Shown here in pieces: positions 35 through 35,956 of a DNA stretch of 64,000 nt. The DNA comes from Centroscyllium fabricii (lineage: Eukaryota), in NCBI GenBank assembly GCA_051313645.2, contig JBNRSN020000001.1:347448001-347512000 (forward strand), written 5' to 3'. How positions within the stretch are numbered: position 1 is the stretch's first letter; each line of letters begins with the position of its first letter. The position numbers and the translations under genes were made by a program. The notes beneath the pieces are model-generated. The model did not search any database and had not been told where the DNA came from. It worked only from the letters and a program-made list of their open reading frames with translations.

Positions 35-2200
35 ATGGACTCAGTCCTACGGGACTTGACGTTCATTTTCGTCTACCTGGACGACATCCTTGTGGCCAGC
101 ACCTCCCCCCAGGAACACCTCCTGCACCTCAGGACCCAGTTCCAGTGCCTGGTCGAACACGGCCTAATATTAAGCCCCACTAAGTGTAAATTCGGCCTCC
201 AAACCATTGACTTCCTCGGCCACCGCATTTCCCAAACCAGGGCCATACCCCTGCCCTCCAAGGTGCAGGCGGTCCAGGAATTTCCCCGCCCGCACTCCAT
301 TAAGGGGCTGCAGGAATTTCTGGGGATGGTCAATTTTTACAACCGCTTTATCCCGGGAGCAGCCGCTCTCATGGCCCCCTTATACCAGGCCACACGCGGG
401 CAACCCGGCAAAACTGCGGTAGAGTGGACGGCCGACGCCGACACCGCCTTCACCGCAACCAAAACCGCCCTGGCTAACGCCACCCTCCTAGCCCACCCTA
501 GGCCCAACGCCAGAGTAGCCCTCACCACTGACGCCTCCGACCACGCTGTCGGGGCCGTATTTGAGCAGTGGACCGGCAACTCGTGGCAGCCCCTGGCCTT
601 TTTCAGCCGGCAGCTCCGGCCCCCAGAGGTCAAGTACAGCGCCTTCGATAGGGAGCTCCTCGCTCTCCATCTTGCAGTGCGACATTTTTGCTTCCTCCTG
701 GAGGGCCGCCACTTCACAGCCTTCGTCGACCATAAGCCACTCACGTTTGCGATGGCTAAGGTCGCCGAACCCTGGTCGGCCAGGCAGCAGCGCCAGCTCG
801 CGGCCGTGTCGGAGTTTACGACCGACATTCAACACATTTCCGGCCGCGACAACGTGGTCGCTGACTGCCTCTCACGCCCCACTATTAACTCCGCCCAAAT
901 GGCAGTTGATTATGCCCAGCTGGCAGCAGACCAGCTAGCCGACCCTGACCTGCTCAACCCCGCAGCAAACCTCCCCGGCCTCCACTTGGCCAAAATCGCG
1001 CACGGCCCCGCTGCCACCGTCGTCTGCTGCGACGTGTCCCTGCCGCAGCCCAGGCCCGTTGTCCCCCACGCATGGAGGTGACACATTTTCAAGACCCTCC
1101 ATGACCTGTCCCACCCCGGCACCCGCGCGTCGATTAAACTAATCTCGGCCCGGTTCGTATGGCGCGGCCTGCGCAAAGACGTCCGCGCCTGGGCCAACTC
1201 CTGCATTGCCTGCCAGCGCTCCAAAGTGCATAAGCACATCAGGGCACTGCTGGAAACGTTTACAGTGCCGGCCAGACGCTTTGACCACGTCCATATCGAT
1301 CTCGTCGGGCCACTACCGCCATCCCGGGGCCACACGCATGTAATGACCATGGTCGACCACAACACTCGCTGGCCAGAAGCAGTCCCCCTCGCTGCCACCG
1401 GCACCACAGACTTGGCCAGGGCGTTCATCGCCACCTGGGTCGCCCGCTTCGGCGTGCCCACCGACATCACCTCCGACAGAGGACCCCAGTTTACGTCAGC
1501 ACTATGGGCGGCCATCGCCCGCGACCTCGGGGTAACCTTGCATCGAACCACCGCATACCACCCACAAGCTAACGGGCTCTGCGAACGGTTCCACCGCTCT
1601 ATGAAAGCATCACTGAGAGCCACCCTCAAAGATGCGTCATGGACCGACCGTCTCCCATGGGTCCTCCTCGGGCTGCGCTCGGCAGTCAAAGAGGACCTAA
1701 ACGCCTTGGCAGCAGAACTCGTCTACGGCCAAGCCCTAACAGTGCCGGGCGAATTCCTAGCCGAGCCAAACGCTCCCTGGTCAGCCGACCAGTACCTAAA
1801 GGACTTTGCCAACCCGGCACAAGCTTTCCAACCACTACCAGTGGCCCGGCACGGAGAGCCGGCAGCACGAGTACCGGACGGCATTAAAAATTCGAAATTT
1901 GTGTTCGTCCGGCGCGACGGACACCGATCACCACTACAGCCACCATACGATGGCCCTTATAGAGTGCTTCGGGTGGGAGCTAAAGCTTTCCAGCTTCAAA
2001 TGGGCAACAGAACAGAAACTGTTTCAATAGACCGGCTCAAACCGGCACACGTTATAGCGGGCGAGACGACAGTCCCCGCACAACCACCGCAACGCGGACG
2101 CCCTCCCACAACAACACCCGCCCACACTCCACCGCAGAACCAGGAACAACGCACAACACGGGCCGGCCGCATCATCCGGCCACCCCAATGGCTCACATAG
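35..2200 (+). pseudogene. pol: Gypsy pol polyprotein (5'-truncated by window edge) with a single in-frame stop at 1079-1081
   Basis: ORFs 35..1081 and 1226..2200 share a frame. The sequence between them reads W-R-*-H-I-F-K-T-L-H-D-L-S-H-P-G...C-I-A-C, which is the integrase zinc finger. Confidence 0.9.
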
Positions 2201-2241
2201 ACTCCTTCTTATTCTCCCGGACAGATTCTGGGGGGGAGCTG

Positions 2242-2487
2242 TGTGGCGGCACGCCCACTAGGACACCGAATCTGCCACGGGAACACTGCGGGGCATGGCC
2301 CCGCTTATCCGGGTGACGCGATGACGTCACCACGACTTCCGGCATGAAGACCTCACCAACGGCGGGCAGTTTAAATAAGCCTGCTTCGAGTGGTTCACTC
2401 TCTTCCTGTGTTACTGTAATGCATTAAACAAGTGCTTTCTCTAGCTCTCTGGCTCACGCGTGGTTTCTAGGCCTTGCTGGCGCTACA
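2242..2487 (+). repeat. 3' LTR of the Gypsy element (~246 bp)
   Basis: Begins TGTGGCG just after the PPT and ends CGCTACA (TG..CA with an imperfect terminal inverted repeat). Internal TTTAAATAA and ATTAAA. The 5' LTR is outside the window, so the boundary is unconfirmed. Confidence 0.75.
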
Positions 2488-2503
2488 CTAGTAAGTATAT
2501 AAT

Positions 2504-3342
2504 GGGCCAGAATTTCGGGTTTGCCGGTTGGTGGGGAACTATGACCATGGGGATCCCTAACGAACCGCACCAACATCGCACTTTTTTTACTCCCAGCATT
2601 TCGGCTCGGCTACGCCCCCTTCCTGCGCAACGTGGCAGTCCAGCCACGCTAGGAGCGCAGTGTATGCCCCACCCACAGATCCCCAATTTAAATTTAAAAA
2701 CGCCCACAGATCCCCAATTTAAATTAAAAAACACCCACAGACCCCGAGTCGGACCTTTGAGAGAGCAGGGACGTGAGGCGCTGCACTCACAGACTCGGCA
2801 GTGAGCAGCGCGGCCAGACCAGCTTTTGACTGAAGGTAAGTCAGCGATTTTTTTCTCTTCTTTTTTTAACTTCACTAAATTCGTTAAAAATTTCAGAACT
2901 CTAAATTTAAAAATTAGCGATTTGGAATAGGTATAGCAATTCAAAATCGGATTTGTAAAAAAATTTTTTTAACTTTAACATCCAAATTTATTGATACCGA
3001 ACTGGCCACATTACTCCCCAAAACTGTTAAAACTTAAAATTAAAGGTCAAAAAATAACTTACCTTGTTTAAAAATGCATTTTACTCCGTCACGCACGAGT
3101 TACAACTGGTTTTCTCCCGTGCAGCTTGTGGGCCCGTTGCCCACAGAATCACTGACCAAAAATCACCCTATTGGAGCCCAAATTCTGGGTGCAACTCACT
3201 CCTGCGTTTGATGCTGAGGGCCCTTCTCCCTCAGCATCGGAAATCTCGGATCCGTGGGCATCTCCCGTGCATTCATCGCACGGGGCATTTTGGACCCGTT
3301 CGTGCATGGGCATCTGGTTTGAGGCACCCGAAATTCTGGCCG
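2504..3342. mobile_element. Non-autonomous DNA transposon (MITE), PIF/Harbinger-like, family M1
   Basis: TIR GGCCAGAATTTCGGGT (2505-2520) / ACCCGAAATTCTGGCC (3326-3341), flanked by AAT on both sides. The interior is homologous (inverted) to 52830-53668. Confidence 0.8.
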
Positions 3343-4339
3343 AATTAATAAAAATACCATGTGGGTATGAGCAAATTTGTGGAGTGCAGGTAGGGGTGTA
3401 AAGGTGTAGAGATGTAAGGGTTCTGGGTGGAGTGAAGGTGCGGCGGTGATAGTAGGTGTATTGGTGAAGACTGTGGCCTTTCCATGACCTTCCATTTACT
3501 TACCACCACCTAACAGCCCTGTCCCTCCATGTCGCTTGGGTGTTATTTACATCTGACCTCCTGCATGCCAGAATGTCAGGAAGTGGCAGGCAAGATCGAA
3601 ACACTCCTAAACGAATATTTAAATGAAGCCTCTGCCTGCTTGTGGTGAGCATTTCCACCATTGCAAATTCAACCAGTTTGCATTGAGCCTCTGAAACCAA
3701 GATGCAAACAACTATTGCACAGTCTGACAATTCATAAATATCTTACTGCAAGTATATACCTATGATACGATTAGTAAAGTTAAACAGTTAAATAACCTGC
3801 ATTGGAGTGAATGAGATCCCTTCTAATTCCACACCTGTTCCCATATGTGGCAGACTCTGGGGTCCATCTTGCTTTAGATCAGAAGAATCTCTATATCATA
3901 CATTACATTTTACTACTTGTTGACGTGTTTTTGTCACACTTTTGTGTCACTTTCCGTTCTAAATTCCTATTTTCATATTTATAATGGAAAGTGCCTATGT
4001 AAACTAGTCATGCTGTACTTGTGCCCTTCCACCAGTTGTGGCACTGTAGCATCTCAGTTTTGCATCTTTTAGCTCCACCTCCTCCTTGGAGCTGCTCCAG
4101 CTCTGCTGCCGTAACTTTGCTGAAAGTGTAGCAGACAGCCCATTTCCGAGTGTAAGTGGGGTTTATGCCCCACTTCCAGCATATTTAAAGTGGCGGAGCG
4201 GGAGCAAGTCCAAGGAAATTCTCTGCCCTGTGCTCTAATCACAACTTTACCTGCTTGCTTCTCAAATTGCTCTAAGTTTACCTATTTAGCCATAAATAAT
4301 ATAAAATCAAAATATTGTATAAAAATAAGGACAATGTAT

Positions 4340-5100
4340 GGCCAGGATCCTCAGTGGGCCACGGAAGCGTGATTGGAGGCGTGCGGGGGAGTGAAAATTG
4401 TGAAAACTGGTGGTCGGAGTGTGAGGGCTGCATAGTCAAATAGTTATGTGTATGTGACCATAGAGAGAAAGGGAATGGGTAAGGGTGCATGGATGTCAGT
4501 GTCAAGTGGGATGTGGAGGAAGAGATTGCTGAAGCTGAGTGCTGGTGAGGAAAGGCAATGGGGATCCGATTGAGGGTGATGGGAAAATCATCCTCACTTT
4601 TCCAGTGTGGAGAAGGTCATGAAATCTCTTCCTGCACTGTATCCAAGTTCTGCGGGTGACTCCCAAGGAGTTGCCCTCCTCAGCCACCTGCATCCACACT
4701 GCCTTGGTCTGCTTGGGAGGCCTCTTCCTCCCTGTAGAAGGGAAGAGCACCTCCCTGTTGGCTGTAGCCTCATCTACTAATGCCTGCAAGGCCACCTCAT
4801 CAAAACGAGGAGCTGATCTGGGTCTCCCGCTAGTCATCTTTCCTGCAGGTCTCTCACACTCCACAGGCAAAAAGCTTGGCAGTCTGCAGAAGAAGCAAGG
4901 CTTGGTGTAGACCTTAAATACAACAGCAATGATGATGTCATCGGAGGTGACTTTCAGTCATGAAAAACCCATTTGCCAAGGGTTCCCACACGTTGGAAAT
5001 CAATTGGACAATTAAGTTAAAATTGCACCAATCTCCCACATGCATTTAGATTCAGGTGGATAGCACGACACCATCCCGCACCTGAGTTAAAATCCAGCCC
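4340..5100 (-). mobile_element. Degenerate Harbinger-derived element carrying a Myb/SANT-like DNA-binding exon
   Basis: Ends GGCCAGGAT... / ...AAAATCCAGCCC with TAT on both flanks. The TIR match is weak. Contains a Myb-like coding remnant. Confidence 0.5.
4597..4837 (-). pseudogene. Myb/SANT-like (NAIF1/MSANTD-type, Harbinger ORF2) DNA-binding domain exon
   Basis: Reads MTSGRPRSAPRFDEVALQALVDEATANREVLF...KAVWMQVAEE...RRTWIQCRKRFHDL, the spaced F/W/W trihelix pattern, followed by a GTGAGG donor on the minus strand. Confidence 0.7.
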
Positions 5101-11889: not shown

Positions 11890-12846
11890 TCTCACATTAA
11901 TTAGTTGTTTATGCAAATAATTATATTCAATTAAAGAGGGAATTTCCTCACCTGGATCTCTTTTCCAAAAGTGTTGATATTCATCGCAGTTTGATTAAAA
12001 AATGATGAGGAATAATGACCCCTAACAAAATAAATAATGGATGCCAAATCAGTTTTTTAGATTCTCATTCTATTAAACGGGTCTATTACAGGCAGCCTCT
12101 TCAAGAAGTAATTGTGCCCACCATCAGATACCGTCATCAGTGCTTGTCTGAGAGAAAGAAAGCAGTGTGGATGTTTCAAGCAAAAAACAAGTATGAAGTG
12201 TGATTGTTTTAGAAGTACTGCTGAAAGTCAGGCTGTCTGTGATGAATTTCCCTGTATAATATATGTGTATGTATGGATTGTGCTCATAATATGCCCCAAG
12301 GCTAGGTATTCCTCCTCACCTGTGGCCTTCGGGATGCCTGCCGTTTCATACGCCGTCAGATCTCTAAAGGCCCTGTCACACCTTGACGTTTTAGCTTGCG
12401 TATGCAAATTTGGCCGATACGCTGGTATACGTTGGACAAGTTATGGGTACGTTATGCATACGGTAAGAGCACGTTGCCATACGCTGGACATAAGCTGTAT
12501 ACGTCGTTTAAGTCGTGATTTTTTGTGCATGCACAAAAAATCACGACGTATAAATGTAACTCTTTATACGCTCAGCATACGCTGAACATACGTTGCAGGC
12601 ACGTTAGGCGATCGTTGACACACTTTAGTCATACGTCATAATACGTCGAGATAATGCCTATTTTTCCAGGAACTTATGTCTAACCTATGAGTAACGTGCT
12701 TTGAACTTATGCGTAACGTATCTCCAACGCATATTGACGTATGTAGACGTATTTGACGTCTTGCGGACGACCACAGACCTTACTGAACGTGTTTCTAACT
12801 TACAGCTAACGTATAATGGCGTACTGGCAGCGTTTAGGGAATTTGG

Positions 12847-12855
12847 TATATAAAA
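12847..12855 (+). promoter_or_regulatory. Candidate TATA box of the transposase gene
   Basis: TATATAAAA about 80 bp upstream of the ATG at 12927. A candidate polyA signal AATAAA lies at 14438-14443, after the stop. Confidence 0.5.
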
Positions 12856-12926
12856 AGGGGTTTCACAGGAGGAACCAGTCAGTGTTCCAGACTCCATGGT
12901 GAGCAGATGTCCATGTAATCCAAGAG

Positions 12927-13996
12927 ATGGAGGATCCGGCAAGACGAGAACTACTACTAGCTGTCCTCCAACATCAACAAGCACTCTTCGATTTTACACT
13001 GTACCAGAGGCGTGCCAAAAGAGCCAAGAGAAGATTAGCTGAACGGAGGAGAAGGAACTGGGTGAGACCATGGATCGGGAGGCGACGGCAGTTTGGCATG
13101 TATGACCAGCTCATGGTGGAACTCCGTAACGAGGACCATGCATCCTTCACCAACTTCCTGCGTATGCCCCCAGCGATGTTCGACGAGCTGCTAGCCAGAG
13201 TGGGTCCAAGGATAACCAAGCAGTACACCTTCTACAGGGATCCGCTTGAGCCTGGCATGAAGCTGGCACTGACTTTGCGTCACCTTGCCTCTGGAAACAA
13301 GTATGCCTCGATGAAGTTCGCATGGAGGGTCCCTCACAACACCCAGTCCATAGTGGTCAGAGAAGTCTGTCAAGCCATTATTGACGAATACGTGGATGAG
13401 GTGATGGTTTGCCCAACTACTCCTGATGGTTGGCGCGCCATAGCTGACAAGTTCTTCCAAAGATGGAACTTTCCCCATACATGTGGGGCACTTGACGGGA
13501 AGCACGTGGCCTGCCGCTGTCCTCCAAAGACTGGGTCACAGTACTACAATTACAAAGGATTCTACTCCATTGTTCTGATGGCGCTTGTAGATGCAGACTA
13601 CAAATTTATTTGGGCAGATGTCGGCGGTACTGGATCTGCATCAGATGCGCAGATATACAATGACTCTGAGCTAAAGGAATGCGCTGAAGACGGTACCCTT
13701 GGTTTCACTGACCCTGAGCCTCTTCCCTACGACAACCAGGACGTGCCTTACTTCTTCATCGGTGACGATGCCTTCGCCTTACGACCAACCATGATGAAGC
13801 CATTCAGCCTCCGTGGAATGACGAATGAAGAACGCATCTTCAACTACAGGCTTAGCCGAGCAAGAAGGGTAGTAGAAAATGCATTCGGCATCCTGGCTAA
13901 CAGATTCCAGGTTCTGCTAAGTACCATGCAGCATCACCCCTCCACTGTCAAGCTCATTGTCAAAGCATGCTTGATCCTGCACAACCTCATGACCAG
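12927..13996 (+). CDS. Harbinger (HARBI1-like, DDE_Tnp_4) transposase, exon 1
   Basis: FTNFLRM...FDELL, LALTLRHLASG (HTH), GALDGKHV, YYNYKGFYSIVLMALVDADYKF, GSASDAQI, FIGDDAF and RRVVENAFGILANRF. Donor AG|GTAATT at 13997. Confidence 0.92.
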
Positions 13997-14193
13997 GTAA
14001 TTAATGTTTACATAGCATATATTATACAGTATACAATGAAATTTAACTTTTAGCCTATGCTTATAAACATTATATGATTTACCTTAAATTTTACATGTAT
14101 CATTATATTACTTTTTAATGTACAGCGCATTAGAATATATGTTTTCATTATAGGTGCGCTTTATAAGTAAATAAAATCAAATTCAAATTCCAG

Positions 14194-14410
14194 GTACCCA
14201 GGACTACAGAACCAGCAGCTTGACCAGGCAGAAAATGAGAACCGCGACCTTGTTCCAGGAGCATGGCGAAAGGTACATCAGTTGGAGGATACACAGACAG
14301 CTGCTGGCCCCAACACTGCCTCCAAGGACGGAAGGAAACAGAGGAATCTCCTCAAGCACTGGGTTAACTCCACAGCTGGCGCAGTTCCGTGGCAAGATAG
14401 GATGATTTAG
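14194..14410 (+). CDS. Harbinger transposase, exon 2 (spliced product 428 aa)
   Basis: Acceptor TTCCAG|G. Phase-2 splicing gives (R)YPGLQNQQLDQ...PGAWR...RNLLKHWVNSTAGAVPWQDRMI*, ending in the characteristic Harbinger GAVPWQ motif. This exon is not in the ORF track. Confidence 0.85.
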
Positions 14411-14861
14411 ATATTTGTATTACAGCATTGTTCAGGCAATAAAGAGACTTTCCTCCTGAAATGAACATCTTAAAGCCTTTTTTTCAATTATCCACTTTTC
14501 AATATACATGTACATTATATTATTATACCTTTTTCAAAGTGATTGAATTTATTATTGTTAATTATTGTTGTAATGATTTAAATATTAAAGCAATAAAATC
14601 AGCAAACATCAAGAGTTTGCTCAACTTTTATTAAATCTGTAGTGGTATGATTTGAATCGTCCAATGGCAGCCTTTGAATAGTCTACACCACGTGATCTTT
14701 GGCGATACGCTGCCGCGCGCTATGCATACGTTAGACTATCGTTGGGCATACGTTATGAATACGCTACTACACCGCAAAAATTGAACAAAGTGTCAAAAGT
14801 TCAGCGTTTTAGCCTCATTTGCATAGGCTGGCTAAAACGTCTAGGTGTGACAGGGCCTTAA

Positions 14862-22077: not shown

Positions 22078-23823
22078 ATAGAGTCATAGAGTTATACAGC
22101 ACAGAAAGAGGCCCTTCGGCCCATCGCGTTTGCGCCATCCATCAAGCCCTGTCTATTCTAATCCCATTTTCCAGCACTTGGTCCGTAGCCTTGTATGCTA
22201 CGGCATTTCAAGTGCTCATCCAAATGCTTCTTGAATGTTGTGAAGGTTCCTGCCTCCACCACCCTTTCAGGCAGCGAGTTTCAGATTTCAACCACCCTCT
22301 GGGTGAAAAAGTTCTTCTTCAAATCCCCTCTAAACCTCCCGCCCCTTACCTTGAAACTATGTCCCCTTGCTATTGACCCCTCTACTAAGGGAAAAAGTTC
22401 CTTTCTATCTACCCTATCTATGCCCCACATCATTTTGTACACCTCAATCAGGTGTCCCCCCCGCACCCTCTCAGCCTGCTCTGCTCCAAGGAAAACAACC
22501 CCAGCCTGTCCAGTCTTTCTTCATAGCTGAAGCGCTCCAGCCCAGGTAACATCCTGGTGCATCTCCTCTGCACCCTCTCCAAAGCAATCACATCCTTCCT
22601 ATAGTGTGGCGACCAGAACTGCACACAGTATTCCAGCTGTGGCCTTACTAGCGATTTGTACAGCTCCATCATAACCTCCCTACTCTTATATTGAGAACTG
22701 GCTGGCTCAAAGGAAGCAGAGGGTAGTGGTAGAAGGCCAATACTCGGGCTGGAGACCGGTCACCAGTGGGGTACCACAGGGGTCGGTGTTGGGGCCACTA
22801 CTGTTTGTAATCTTCATCAATGACTTGGAGGAGGGGACTGAGGGGTGGGTCAGCAAATTTGCGGATGACACAAAGATTGGGGGAGAAGTGGATGAGGAGG
22901 AAGGAAGTAGAAAGATTCAGAGGGATATAGACAGGATGCAGAGCTGGGCTGAAGAATGGCAAATGGAGTTCAACACGGGGAAATGCGAGGTGATGCACTT
23001 CGGCAGGGCAAATAGGAAGAGGGAATATAGGGTCAACGGCAGGATCCTGAGTGAAGCAGAGGAGCAAAGGGATCTGGGAGTATATGTACACAGATCACTG
23101 AAGGCTGCCACCCAGGTGGACAAAGCAGTAAAAAAGGCCTATGGTGTATTGGCCTTCATCAACAGAGGAATAGAGTTTAAGAACCGGGAGGTCATGCTGC
23201 AACTGTACAGGTCACTGGTGAGACCACACATGGAGTACTGTGTGCAGTTCTGGGCACCGTACTACAGGAGGGATGTGGAGGCGCTGGAGAGAGTGCAGAG
23301 GAGATTCACCAGGATGCTGCCGGGAATGGGGTGAAAGTCATACGAGGAACGGTTAAGGGAACTGGGACTCTTCTCCCTGGAACGGAGAAGGAAGAGGGGG
23401 GACTTGATAGAGATGTTTAAAATGATGAAGGGGATCGATAGAGTAAACGTGCAAAGACTGTTTCCCCGGGCGGGAAGAACGTCAACAAGAGGACACGAGC
23501 ACAAGATTCAAGGAGGAAGATTCAGAAGGGATGGAAGGGGCAAGTTCTTTACACAGAGAGTGGTCGGGGAATGGAATAGGCTACCATCTGAAATAGTGGA
23601 TGCGGACAGTCTGGGTGCTTTTAAAAGGATGATAGACAGGTACATGGAGGGGAAGGAACAGTAGGGGGGACAGGAAAAATCAGAGACGGACTAAGGGCGG
23701 CACTACATTGAGGGCCCAAGGGCCTGTACAGTGCTGTATGTTCTATTCTATTCTATTCTATATTCTATGCCTCGGCTAATGAAGGCAAGTGTCCCATATG
23801 CCTTTTTAACCACCTTATCCACT
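22078..23823 (-). mobile_element. CR1 LINE 3' part (minus strand), split by a younger CR1
   Basis: [26 protein letters not shown] (22448-22672). The sequence resumes at about 23761 (TATTCTATGCCTCGGCTAATGAAGG). Confidence 0.85.
22693..23760 (+). mobile_element. Young 5'-truncated CR1 LINE (RT C-terminal half), nested
   Basis: [21 protein letters not shown]...KFADDTK... ORFs 22726..23334 and 23404..23664 share a frame with one stop between them. (TTCTA)n tail. Confidence 0.9.

Positions 23824-35614: not shown

Positions 35615-35956
<342 letters not shown>

Follow-up and report, generated by a model that had tools for sequence, protein, structure and literature searches.

The window analysed here, a stretch of 64,000 nucleotides from the genome of the shark Centroscyllium fabricii, contains a Harbinger transposon that the initial annotation had described as intact, candidate active and possibly acquired by horizontal transfer. 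This raises the questions of whether the element can move by itself or belongs to a larger system, and of where that system came from. The element is 2,491 bp long (12368-14858), is flanked on both sides by TAA duplications, and is made up as follows (TIR, terminal inverted repeat).

12365..12367, no strand: left target-site duplication, TAA
12368..12424, plus strand: left TIR, perfect over 16 bp and 84% over 57 bp
12368..12807, plus strand: left arm with CpG-rich ATACG-core repeats, common to MADF-only, two-gene and MITE members of the family
12509..12550, no strand: 42-bp palindrome in the left arm
12849..12855, plus strand: TATA box (TATAAAA) of the transposase gene, a TATA box that the main MADF-only class does not have
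12927..13996, plus strand: transposase exon 1, with D190, D280 and E317
about 13990-13993, plus strand: private one-codon deletion in exon 1
13997..14193, plus strand: GT..AG intron, 197 nt, 22% GC
14194..14410, plus strand: transposase exon 2, ending GAVPWQDRMI-stop
14411..14636, plus strand: 3' UTR and AT-rich terminator, with AATAAA at 14438 and 14592 and a minus-strand AATAAA at 14627-14632
14631..14636, plus strand: TTAAAT microhomology, the deletion scar of the MADF gene and its promoter by comparison with the two-gene copy L122 and with MADF-only copies
14637..14858, plus strand: right arm, including the right TIR (14802-14858)
14859..14861, no strand: right target-site duplication, TAA

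The matching TIRs, the perfect TAA duplication, the TATA box, the polyadenylation signals and the two-exon frame with its DDE triad and GAVPWQ end are all present as initially annotated, and similarity between the TIRs continues beyond the perfect 16 bp at 84% over 57-61 bp. The subterminal wealth of undecayed CpG and TACG/CGTA repeats is likewise borne out: CpG observed/expected ratios are 1.62 and 1.31 in the arms versus 0.45 and 0.30 in the 2-kb flanks, and ATACG/CGTAT occurs 19 times in the arms, compared with a commonest word of at most 17 occurrences (mean 8) in 300 resamples. The ATACG-core repeats of the left arm are likely to be binding sites for a MADF protein. A DDE_Tnp_4 domain with the D/D/E triad, a TWA duplication, TIRs and subterminal repeats place the element in PIF/Harbinger, and the Myb/SANT/MADF protein typical of this group is found at family level, as PF10545 in elements with the same ends. 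The window element does not itself combine transposase and MADF, as an autonomous Harbinger does; frame and Pfam searches of the element found no MADF/Myb gene, and there is no room for one. Harbingers need a Myb-like protein as well as their transposase (PMC9710019), and without a MADF gene the window copy cannot move alone. MADF-only elements also contain its segment 14453-14636, which in them terminates an opposite-strand MADF gene. The reading preferred here, with a probability of roughly 0.7, is that the window element derives from a two-gene PIF/Harbinger by a deletion that left only the transposase, and that it was likely mobilised by MADF protein from other copies, probably mainly from its MADF-only sisters.

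The two exons give a frame of 428 aa with the C-terminus GAVPWQDRMI, a Pfam DDE_Tnp_4 match (E 4.7e-30) and a catalytic triad that is conserved across aligned rows (D190 in 54/55, D280 in 55/55, E317 in 55/55); the predicted model of exon 1 has a mean pLDDT of 87.6. The description of this transposase as intact does not hold, as one codon is missing from an HN-x5-YP motif, which has five residues between HN and YP in each of the 98 listed homologues (out of 120) that contain it, at a position that maps to the end of helix 338-355 in the predicted model. In the other 19 of the 20 nearest copies the coding length is 1,290 nt (429 aa). In the preferred reading the window copy is a passenger, and its enzyme product may be faulty. 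No relative of the transposase was found by sequence search of the PDB, and a fold search with the model returned nothing at E 0.001, the best match being piggyBac at E 0.011, too weak for use. Splicing from 13996 to 14194, which the initial annotation had proposed to check, was recovered as an exact 197-base skip in contigs of related elements in four of four presumed-RNA runs (4 organisms, 3 studies), all from organisms other than the host and with the RNA nature of the runs being a guess. These spliced contigs differ from the window by roughly 4-15% and carry three letters absent from the window copy, and there are also unspliced contigs. Across 50 copies the intron (window 13997-14193 and its family counterparts) has 4 shared changes versus 24 private ones, as if constrained. 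The first 60 transposase codons (window 12927-13106 and family) have a shared dN/dS of about 2-2.5, which is not significant, while the core is conserved.

Copy divergence, also among the proposed checks, is low: the 20 nearest copies differ by 0.29% on average and 18 of them retain an open frame, with 1.7 private substitutions per copy on average and 2 in the window copy. None of the 190 pairs among these copies is identical. Private changes at CpG are about 8 times those at other sites, a bias suggesting that the copies were likely methylated after insertion and that fresh CpGs do indicate youth. At the epaulette shark mutation rate of 7e-10 per generation (PMC10587355), these private substitutions correspond to about one million generations (0.5-4.9 million), provided that they accrued in a clock-like manner and that neither repair nor errors of assembly account for them. 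On these sequence comparisons the window copy appears young, which upholds the youth but not the current activity implied by the initial call of a very recent insertion, given the absence of identical pairs.

The element belongs to a large family. Exact matches to TWA plus the first 15 TIR bases mark 31,453 ends in the 7.2-Gb genome, equivalent to about 15,700 elements or one member per roughly 460 kb, and among 40 candidates scored, 38 besides the window copy were full-length at 99-100%. Members fall into numerous MITEs (about 0.5-0.6 kb), transposase-only (2.4-2.7 kb), MADF-only (2.5-3.0 kb) and two-gene elements (4.0-4.2 kb). MADF-only elements have the same ends and a two-exon, opposite-strand gene whose product of about 420 aa matches Pfam MADF_DNA_bdg (E 7e-7). 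Exact-motif counts, all of them lower bounds, place the transposase motif in at least 2,179 places and the MADF motif in at least 2,861. The two transposase-only junctions occur in at least 1,368 and at least 545 copies (at least 1,913 transposase-only elements), the main MADF-only junction in at least 1,914, a count that misses a variant one base shorter, and the junction of the two-gene clade (clade C) in at least 352; MADF-only elements number about 2,700 in the genome. As in a bipartite or solo-ORF Harbinger, both single-gene classes have multiplied at independent sites.

Two-gene copies also exist. Of the places on contig C1 that carry the transposase motif, the first 70 include 6 two-gene copies and 42 with a transposase-only junction; inspection of the sequences at the remaining 22 found no whole MADF gene, with one place retaining a remnant and one having no right end in the stretch. 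Six of 70 scales to about 190 genome-wide, and the overall estimate is about 150-200. The exact motif for a two-gene copy with the full UTR was found once (L122). Of 48 clade-C junction loci, 16 have both frames intact, and 24 without a parsed transposase form a second MADF-only class. An obligately bipartite state with no intact two-gene copy, as in C. inopinata, is ruled out by these 16 loci and L122. The ancestral layout (left arm, transposase, shared terminator, opposite-strand MADF, right arm) survives in copies of 4.1-4.2 kb, and the single-gene classes differ from it by microhomology deletions, at TTAAAT (14631-14636) for removal of MADF and at CT for the joining of the left arm to the transposase 3' UTR. 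The MADF proteins of clade C (L078-L082, L055) contain a variable QPQYQQQ tract that is absent from the main MADF-only class. At L060 and L064, family members are nested in one another at TWA sites inside arms.

The family's density also bears on the surroundings of the element. A SIM-type bHLH exon, presumably of SIM1 rather than SIM2, starts at 35636, 20.8 kb away, in agreement with the earlier figure of about 20 kb from SIM1. With one member per roughly 460 kb, this distance needs no explanation, and a regulatory link to SIM1 was dropped. Of the GG..CC Harbinger relics reported elsewhere in the window, one element was recovered, at 4340-5100: it is 761 bp long, is flanked at each end by TAT and contains a Myb_DNA-bind_5 frame (minus strand, 4505-4957) but no transposase, and by its sequence is a Myb-only relic of an unrelated Harbinger family with a different Myb protein. 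Neither tblastn nor a profile search revealed a second Harbinger transposase relic in the window. A 372-aa integrase frame of LTR-retrotransposon type lies at 1082-2200.

Whether the two halves cooperate can be approached through selection on their proteins. The MADF-only frames are intact in 42 of 46 copies, with one further copy carrying an insertion left unparsed, although synonymous divergence behind their one shared deletion junction reaches 0.18. Shared changes in the MADF-only DNA-binding domain have a dN/dS of 0.31-0.41 (p 2.5e-5 to 1e-3), versus about 1 in the downstream part, and private MADF changes one of 0.45-0.59, a low value that arises because scoring was confined to intact frames; it is not significantly different from that of shared changes. 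All five shared length classes in each MADF exon are in frame, whereas arm lengths vary in all three phases; triplet repeats favour such a pattern. In the transposase core, shared changes have a dN/dS of 0.24-0.30 versus 0.75-0.94 for private changes (Fisher p 0.025 in 39 intact copies, 0.035 in 50/52 copies), a signal that falls to p 0.09-0.23 against all neutral sites, intron and UTR included. These estimates rest on pairwise and private-versus-shared counts. Both halves thus show signs of purifying selection, clear for MADF and modest for the transposase. In a survey of 307 vertebrates, DNA transposons evolved neutrally inside genomes and cis preference was given no place (PMC7070016); against this background, the selection signal needs either coupling in cis, a history of passing through re-joined copies, or imports that recurred.

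The arms also cluster across the two classes. Left arms are up to 20% apart, against a maximum of about 5% between transposase frames, and the left-arm tree intermixes transposase-only and MADF-only elements. Of 35 transposase-only left arms, 29 have a MADF-only arm as a closer match than every clade-C arm, in a comparison of 42 MADF-only with 6 clade-C copies whose imbalance favours this result; for the left arm of the window copy, the closest MADF-only arm lies at a distance of 6.6% and the closest clade-C arm at 13.6%. A four-gamete test for crossover recombination gave 12-19% incompatibility, with no steady rise with distance. The two-gene copy L122 (G000:C1266, about 258.414-258.418 Mb) has two frames that look open and matching TTA duplications; its positions 1-2249 are 98.8% like transposase-only copies and 2128-4233 are 98.5% like a MADF-only copy, the overlap lying in the shared terminator. 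L122 looks re-joined from the two halves, though it could be a surviving ancestor instead. A stronger reading, which is possible but doubtful, is that a cut-and-paste transposon has long persisted in a vertebrate as two halves that depend on each other, each under selection to retain a protein for which it has no use alone, with fast-evolving arms kept in step and with re-fusion through the shared terminator into an autonomous element. If true, this would imply a degree of cis preference or of selection resembling that on kin, neither of which is usually credited to DNA transposons.

The target sites suggest how the elements are cut. In 90 insertions (from loci L001-L158), T-x-A is found on both sides in 88; the duplications are identical in 57, differ only at the middle base in 31 (34%; for example, TAA/TTA) and are otherwise different in 2. 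Directly before TWA, C is preferred (58% of 180 flanks). The middle-base mismatches far exceed copy divergence, which suggests that donor overhangs travel with the element, and a staggered excision cut at the duplication has been proposed for mPing (PMC4561436). Mismatched duplications could serve as a genomic readout of cutting chemistry, no solved Harbinger structure being among the PDB matches found. In the mechanism proposed here, the family would have entered the shark lineage by horizontal transfer from a marine animal. Reciprocal microhomology deletions, as the surviving layouts show, split the two-gene ancestor into transposase-only and MADF-only classes, and each class then multiplied into the thousands by insertion at fresh TWA sites. 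The transposase mRNA would start from the TATA box and be spliced and polyadenylated, and the MADF protein, by analogy with Harbinger3_DR, may bind the ATACG-core repeats and recruit the transposase. A staggered cut at TWA would leave 3-nt overhangs, which the element would carry along to its next site for mismatch repair there, and the halves would swap arms and sometimes re-join.

As to origin, a hagfish protein shares 90.7% identity with the transposase, one from shrimp 87.5% and one from periwinkle 89% over 279 aa; a sea-urchin homologue is 72% identical. None of the 21 organism-named rows among the best 120 matches is chondrichthyan, nor is any named member of 10 clusters. For the control, a CR1 reverse transcriptase from the window (22675-23334), 9 of 120 rows are chondrichthyan-named, including the top match, and the nearest is Stegostoma at 75%. 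Among 19 matches to MADF exon 1, the nearest are Priapulus (76%) and pipefish (82% over 77% of the query). A transposase tree of 19 named rows, with unnamed rows and seven others excluded, rejects vertebrate monophyly (AU p 2e-7) and a jawed-vertebrate clade (1e-54), but protein identity is the main argument for transfer, as old paralogues can also break clades. Half or more of the element's words occur in 9 of 22 sequencing runs listed (two organisms, a fish gut metagenome and one unlabelled), and two of the run organisms, which may be sharks, contain about 0.7 of its words; no RNA run is on record among those listed as containing them, which bears neither way on expression. These comparisons suggest that the family likely entered horizontally from other marine animals. 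The transfer concerns the family, whose diversity within the genome (arms up to 20% apart) is far older than the window copy, and the initial idea of horizontal acquisition stands at that level without being tied to this copy. A transposase tree also pairs catfish with scallop (P0055/P0182) and toadfish with oyster (P0041/P0114), which hints at further marine transfers.

Vertical inheritance of the family from an early vertebrate would fit the fact that the nearest named protein comes from hagfish, itself a vertebrate, and trees can be scrambled by old transposon paralogues; it is nonetheless improbable, with shrimp and snail proteins 87-89% identical, no shark-named relative, and Harbingers undetected in the elephant shark by a study that asked for checks in other species (PMC9179366). 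Very improbable is the initial view of the window element as an autonomous, currently active single-gene transposon: the open frame with its DDE triad, the perfect ends and the fresh CpGs are what such an element would have, but the missing MADF gene, the one-codon deletion, the 2 private substitutions and the 0/190 identical pairs speak against it.

Two further alternatives bear on the relationship between the halves. Both single-gene classes could be passengers of the roughly 150-200 two-gene copies, with frames open only through youth. Clade C could have supplied both proteins, as both genes are intact in 16 of its 48 loci and its apparent age is similar (nearest-neighbour distance in the transposase 0.39%, versus 0.47% for transposase-only copies), and neutral evolution within genomes has been reported for DNA transposons (PMC7070016). 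Such passage is considered unlikely, because the MADF-only copies span 18% synonymous divergence behind one junction and yet remain in frame in 42/46 with a conserved DNA-binding domain, and because clade-C arms differ from those of the window copy by 13.7% (left) and 25% (last 120 bp). Alternatively, the selection signal and the ladder of subfamilies could have arisen not by selection within the genome but because functional two-gene elements were imported again and again from marine hosts and recombined with halves already present. Transfer is reported to impose purifying selection on all TEs (PMC7070016), near-identical sequence occurs in runs of other organisms, and a 9-bp deletion is among the features with a mosaic distribution over the junction types; this is judged unlikely too, since a single junction is common to the 46 main MADF-only copies and the ladder is stepwise, as descent in place predicts.

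Taken alone, the window element would be one more case, this time in a cartilaginous fish, of a young Harbinger acquired by horizontal transfer, and it is the view of the family that matters more. Thousands of near-intact copies per half could provide a test of in-genome selection on DNA-transposon proteins, which the 307-genome survey denies (PMC7070016). Searches outside of which lay Repbase and most subscription journals found no report of such a family in sharks or of selection in solo-ORF halves. Harbinger derivatives with a single gene are on record from sea kraits and from a nematode. Harbinger-Snek of sea kraits (PMC8437027; bioRxiv 10.1101/2021.06.13.448261) is likewise marine-acquired and comprises full, transposase-only and DNA-binding-only variants as well as MITEs, with 269, 2263 and 452 intact copies of the first three, respectively, in L. 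colubrina (bioRxiv 10.1101/2021.06.13.448261). It is likely another family, as judged from its description, since its nearest relative is a sea-urchin element whereas the sea-urchin protein is 72% identical here; its solo variants were called possibly non-autonomous, and the parts of these reports consulted contain no test of selection, arm clustering or re-joining. Two-protein transposition, TWA duplication and a staggered cut are shared with Harbinger3_DR of zebrafish and Ping/Pong-mPing of rice, in which a Myb-like protein binds subterminal motifs (PMC9710019, PMC4561436). In those systems both genes lie on one element, whereas the shark family is mostly split and 34% of its sampled duplications are mismatched at the middle base. 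In Harbinger-1M_cIno of Caenorhabditis inopinata, as in the shark, DDE and MADF genes lie on separate TWA-flanked derivatives of one ancestor, and supply in trans was proposed (PMC13668399). That family comprises 258 elements, in which a single DDE locus is intact and two-gene copies in working order are absent (PMC13668399), whereas in the shark each half exists in thousands and an intact two-gene clade persists, numbers that could test whether split Harbingers of the sea-krait and nematode type cooperate or just ride.
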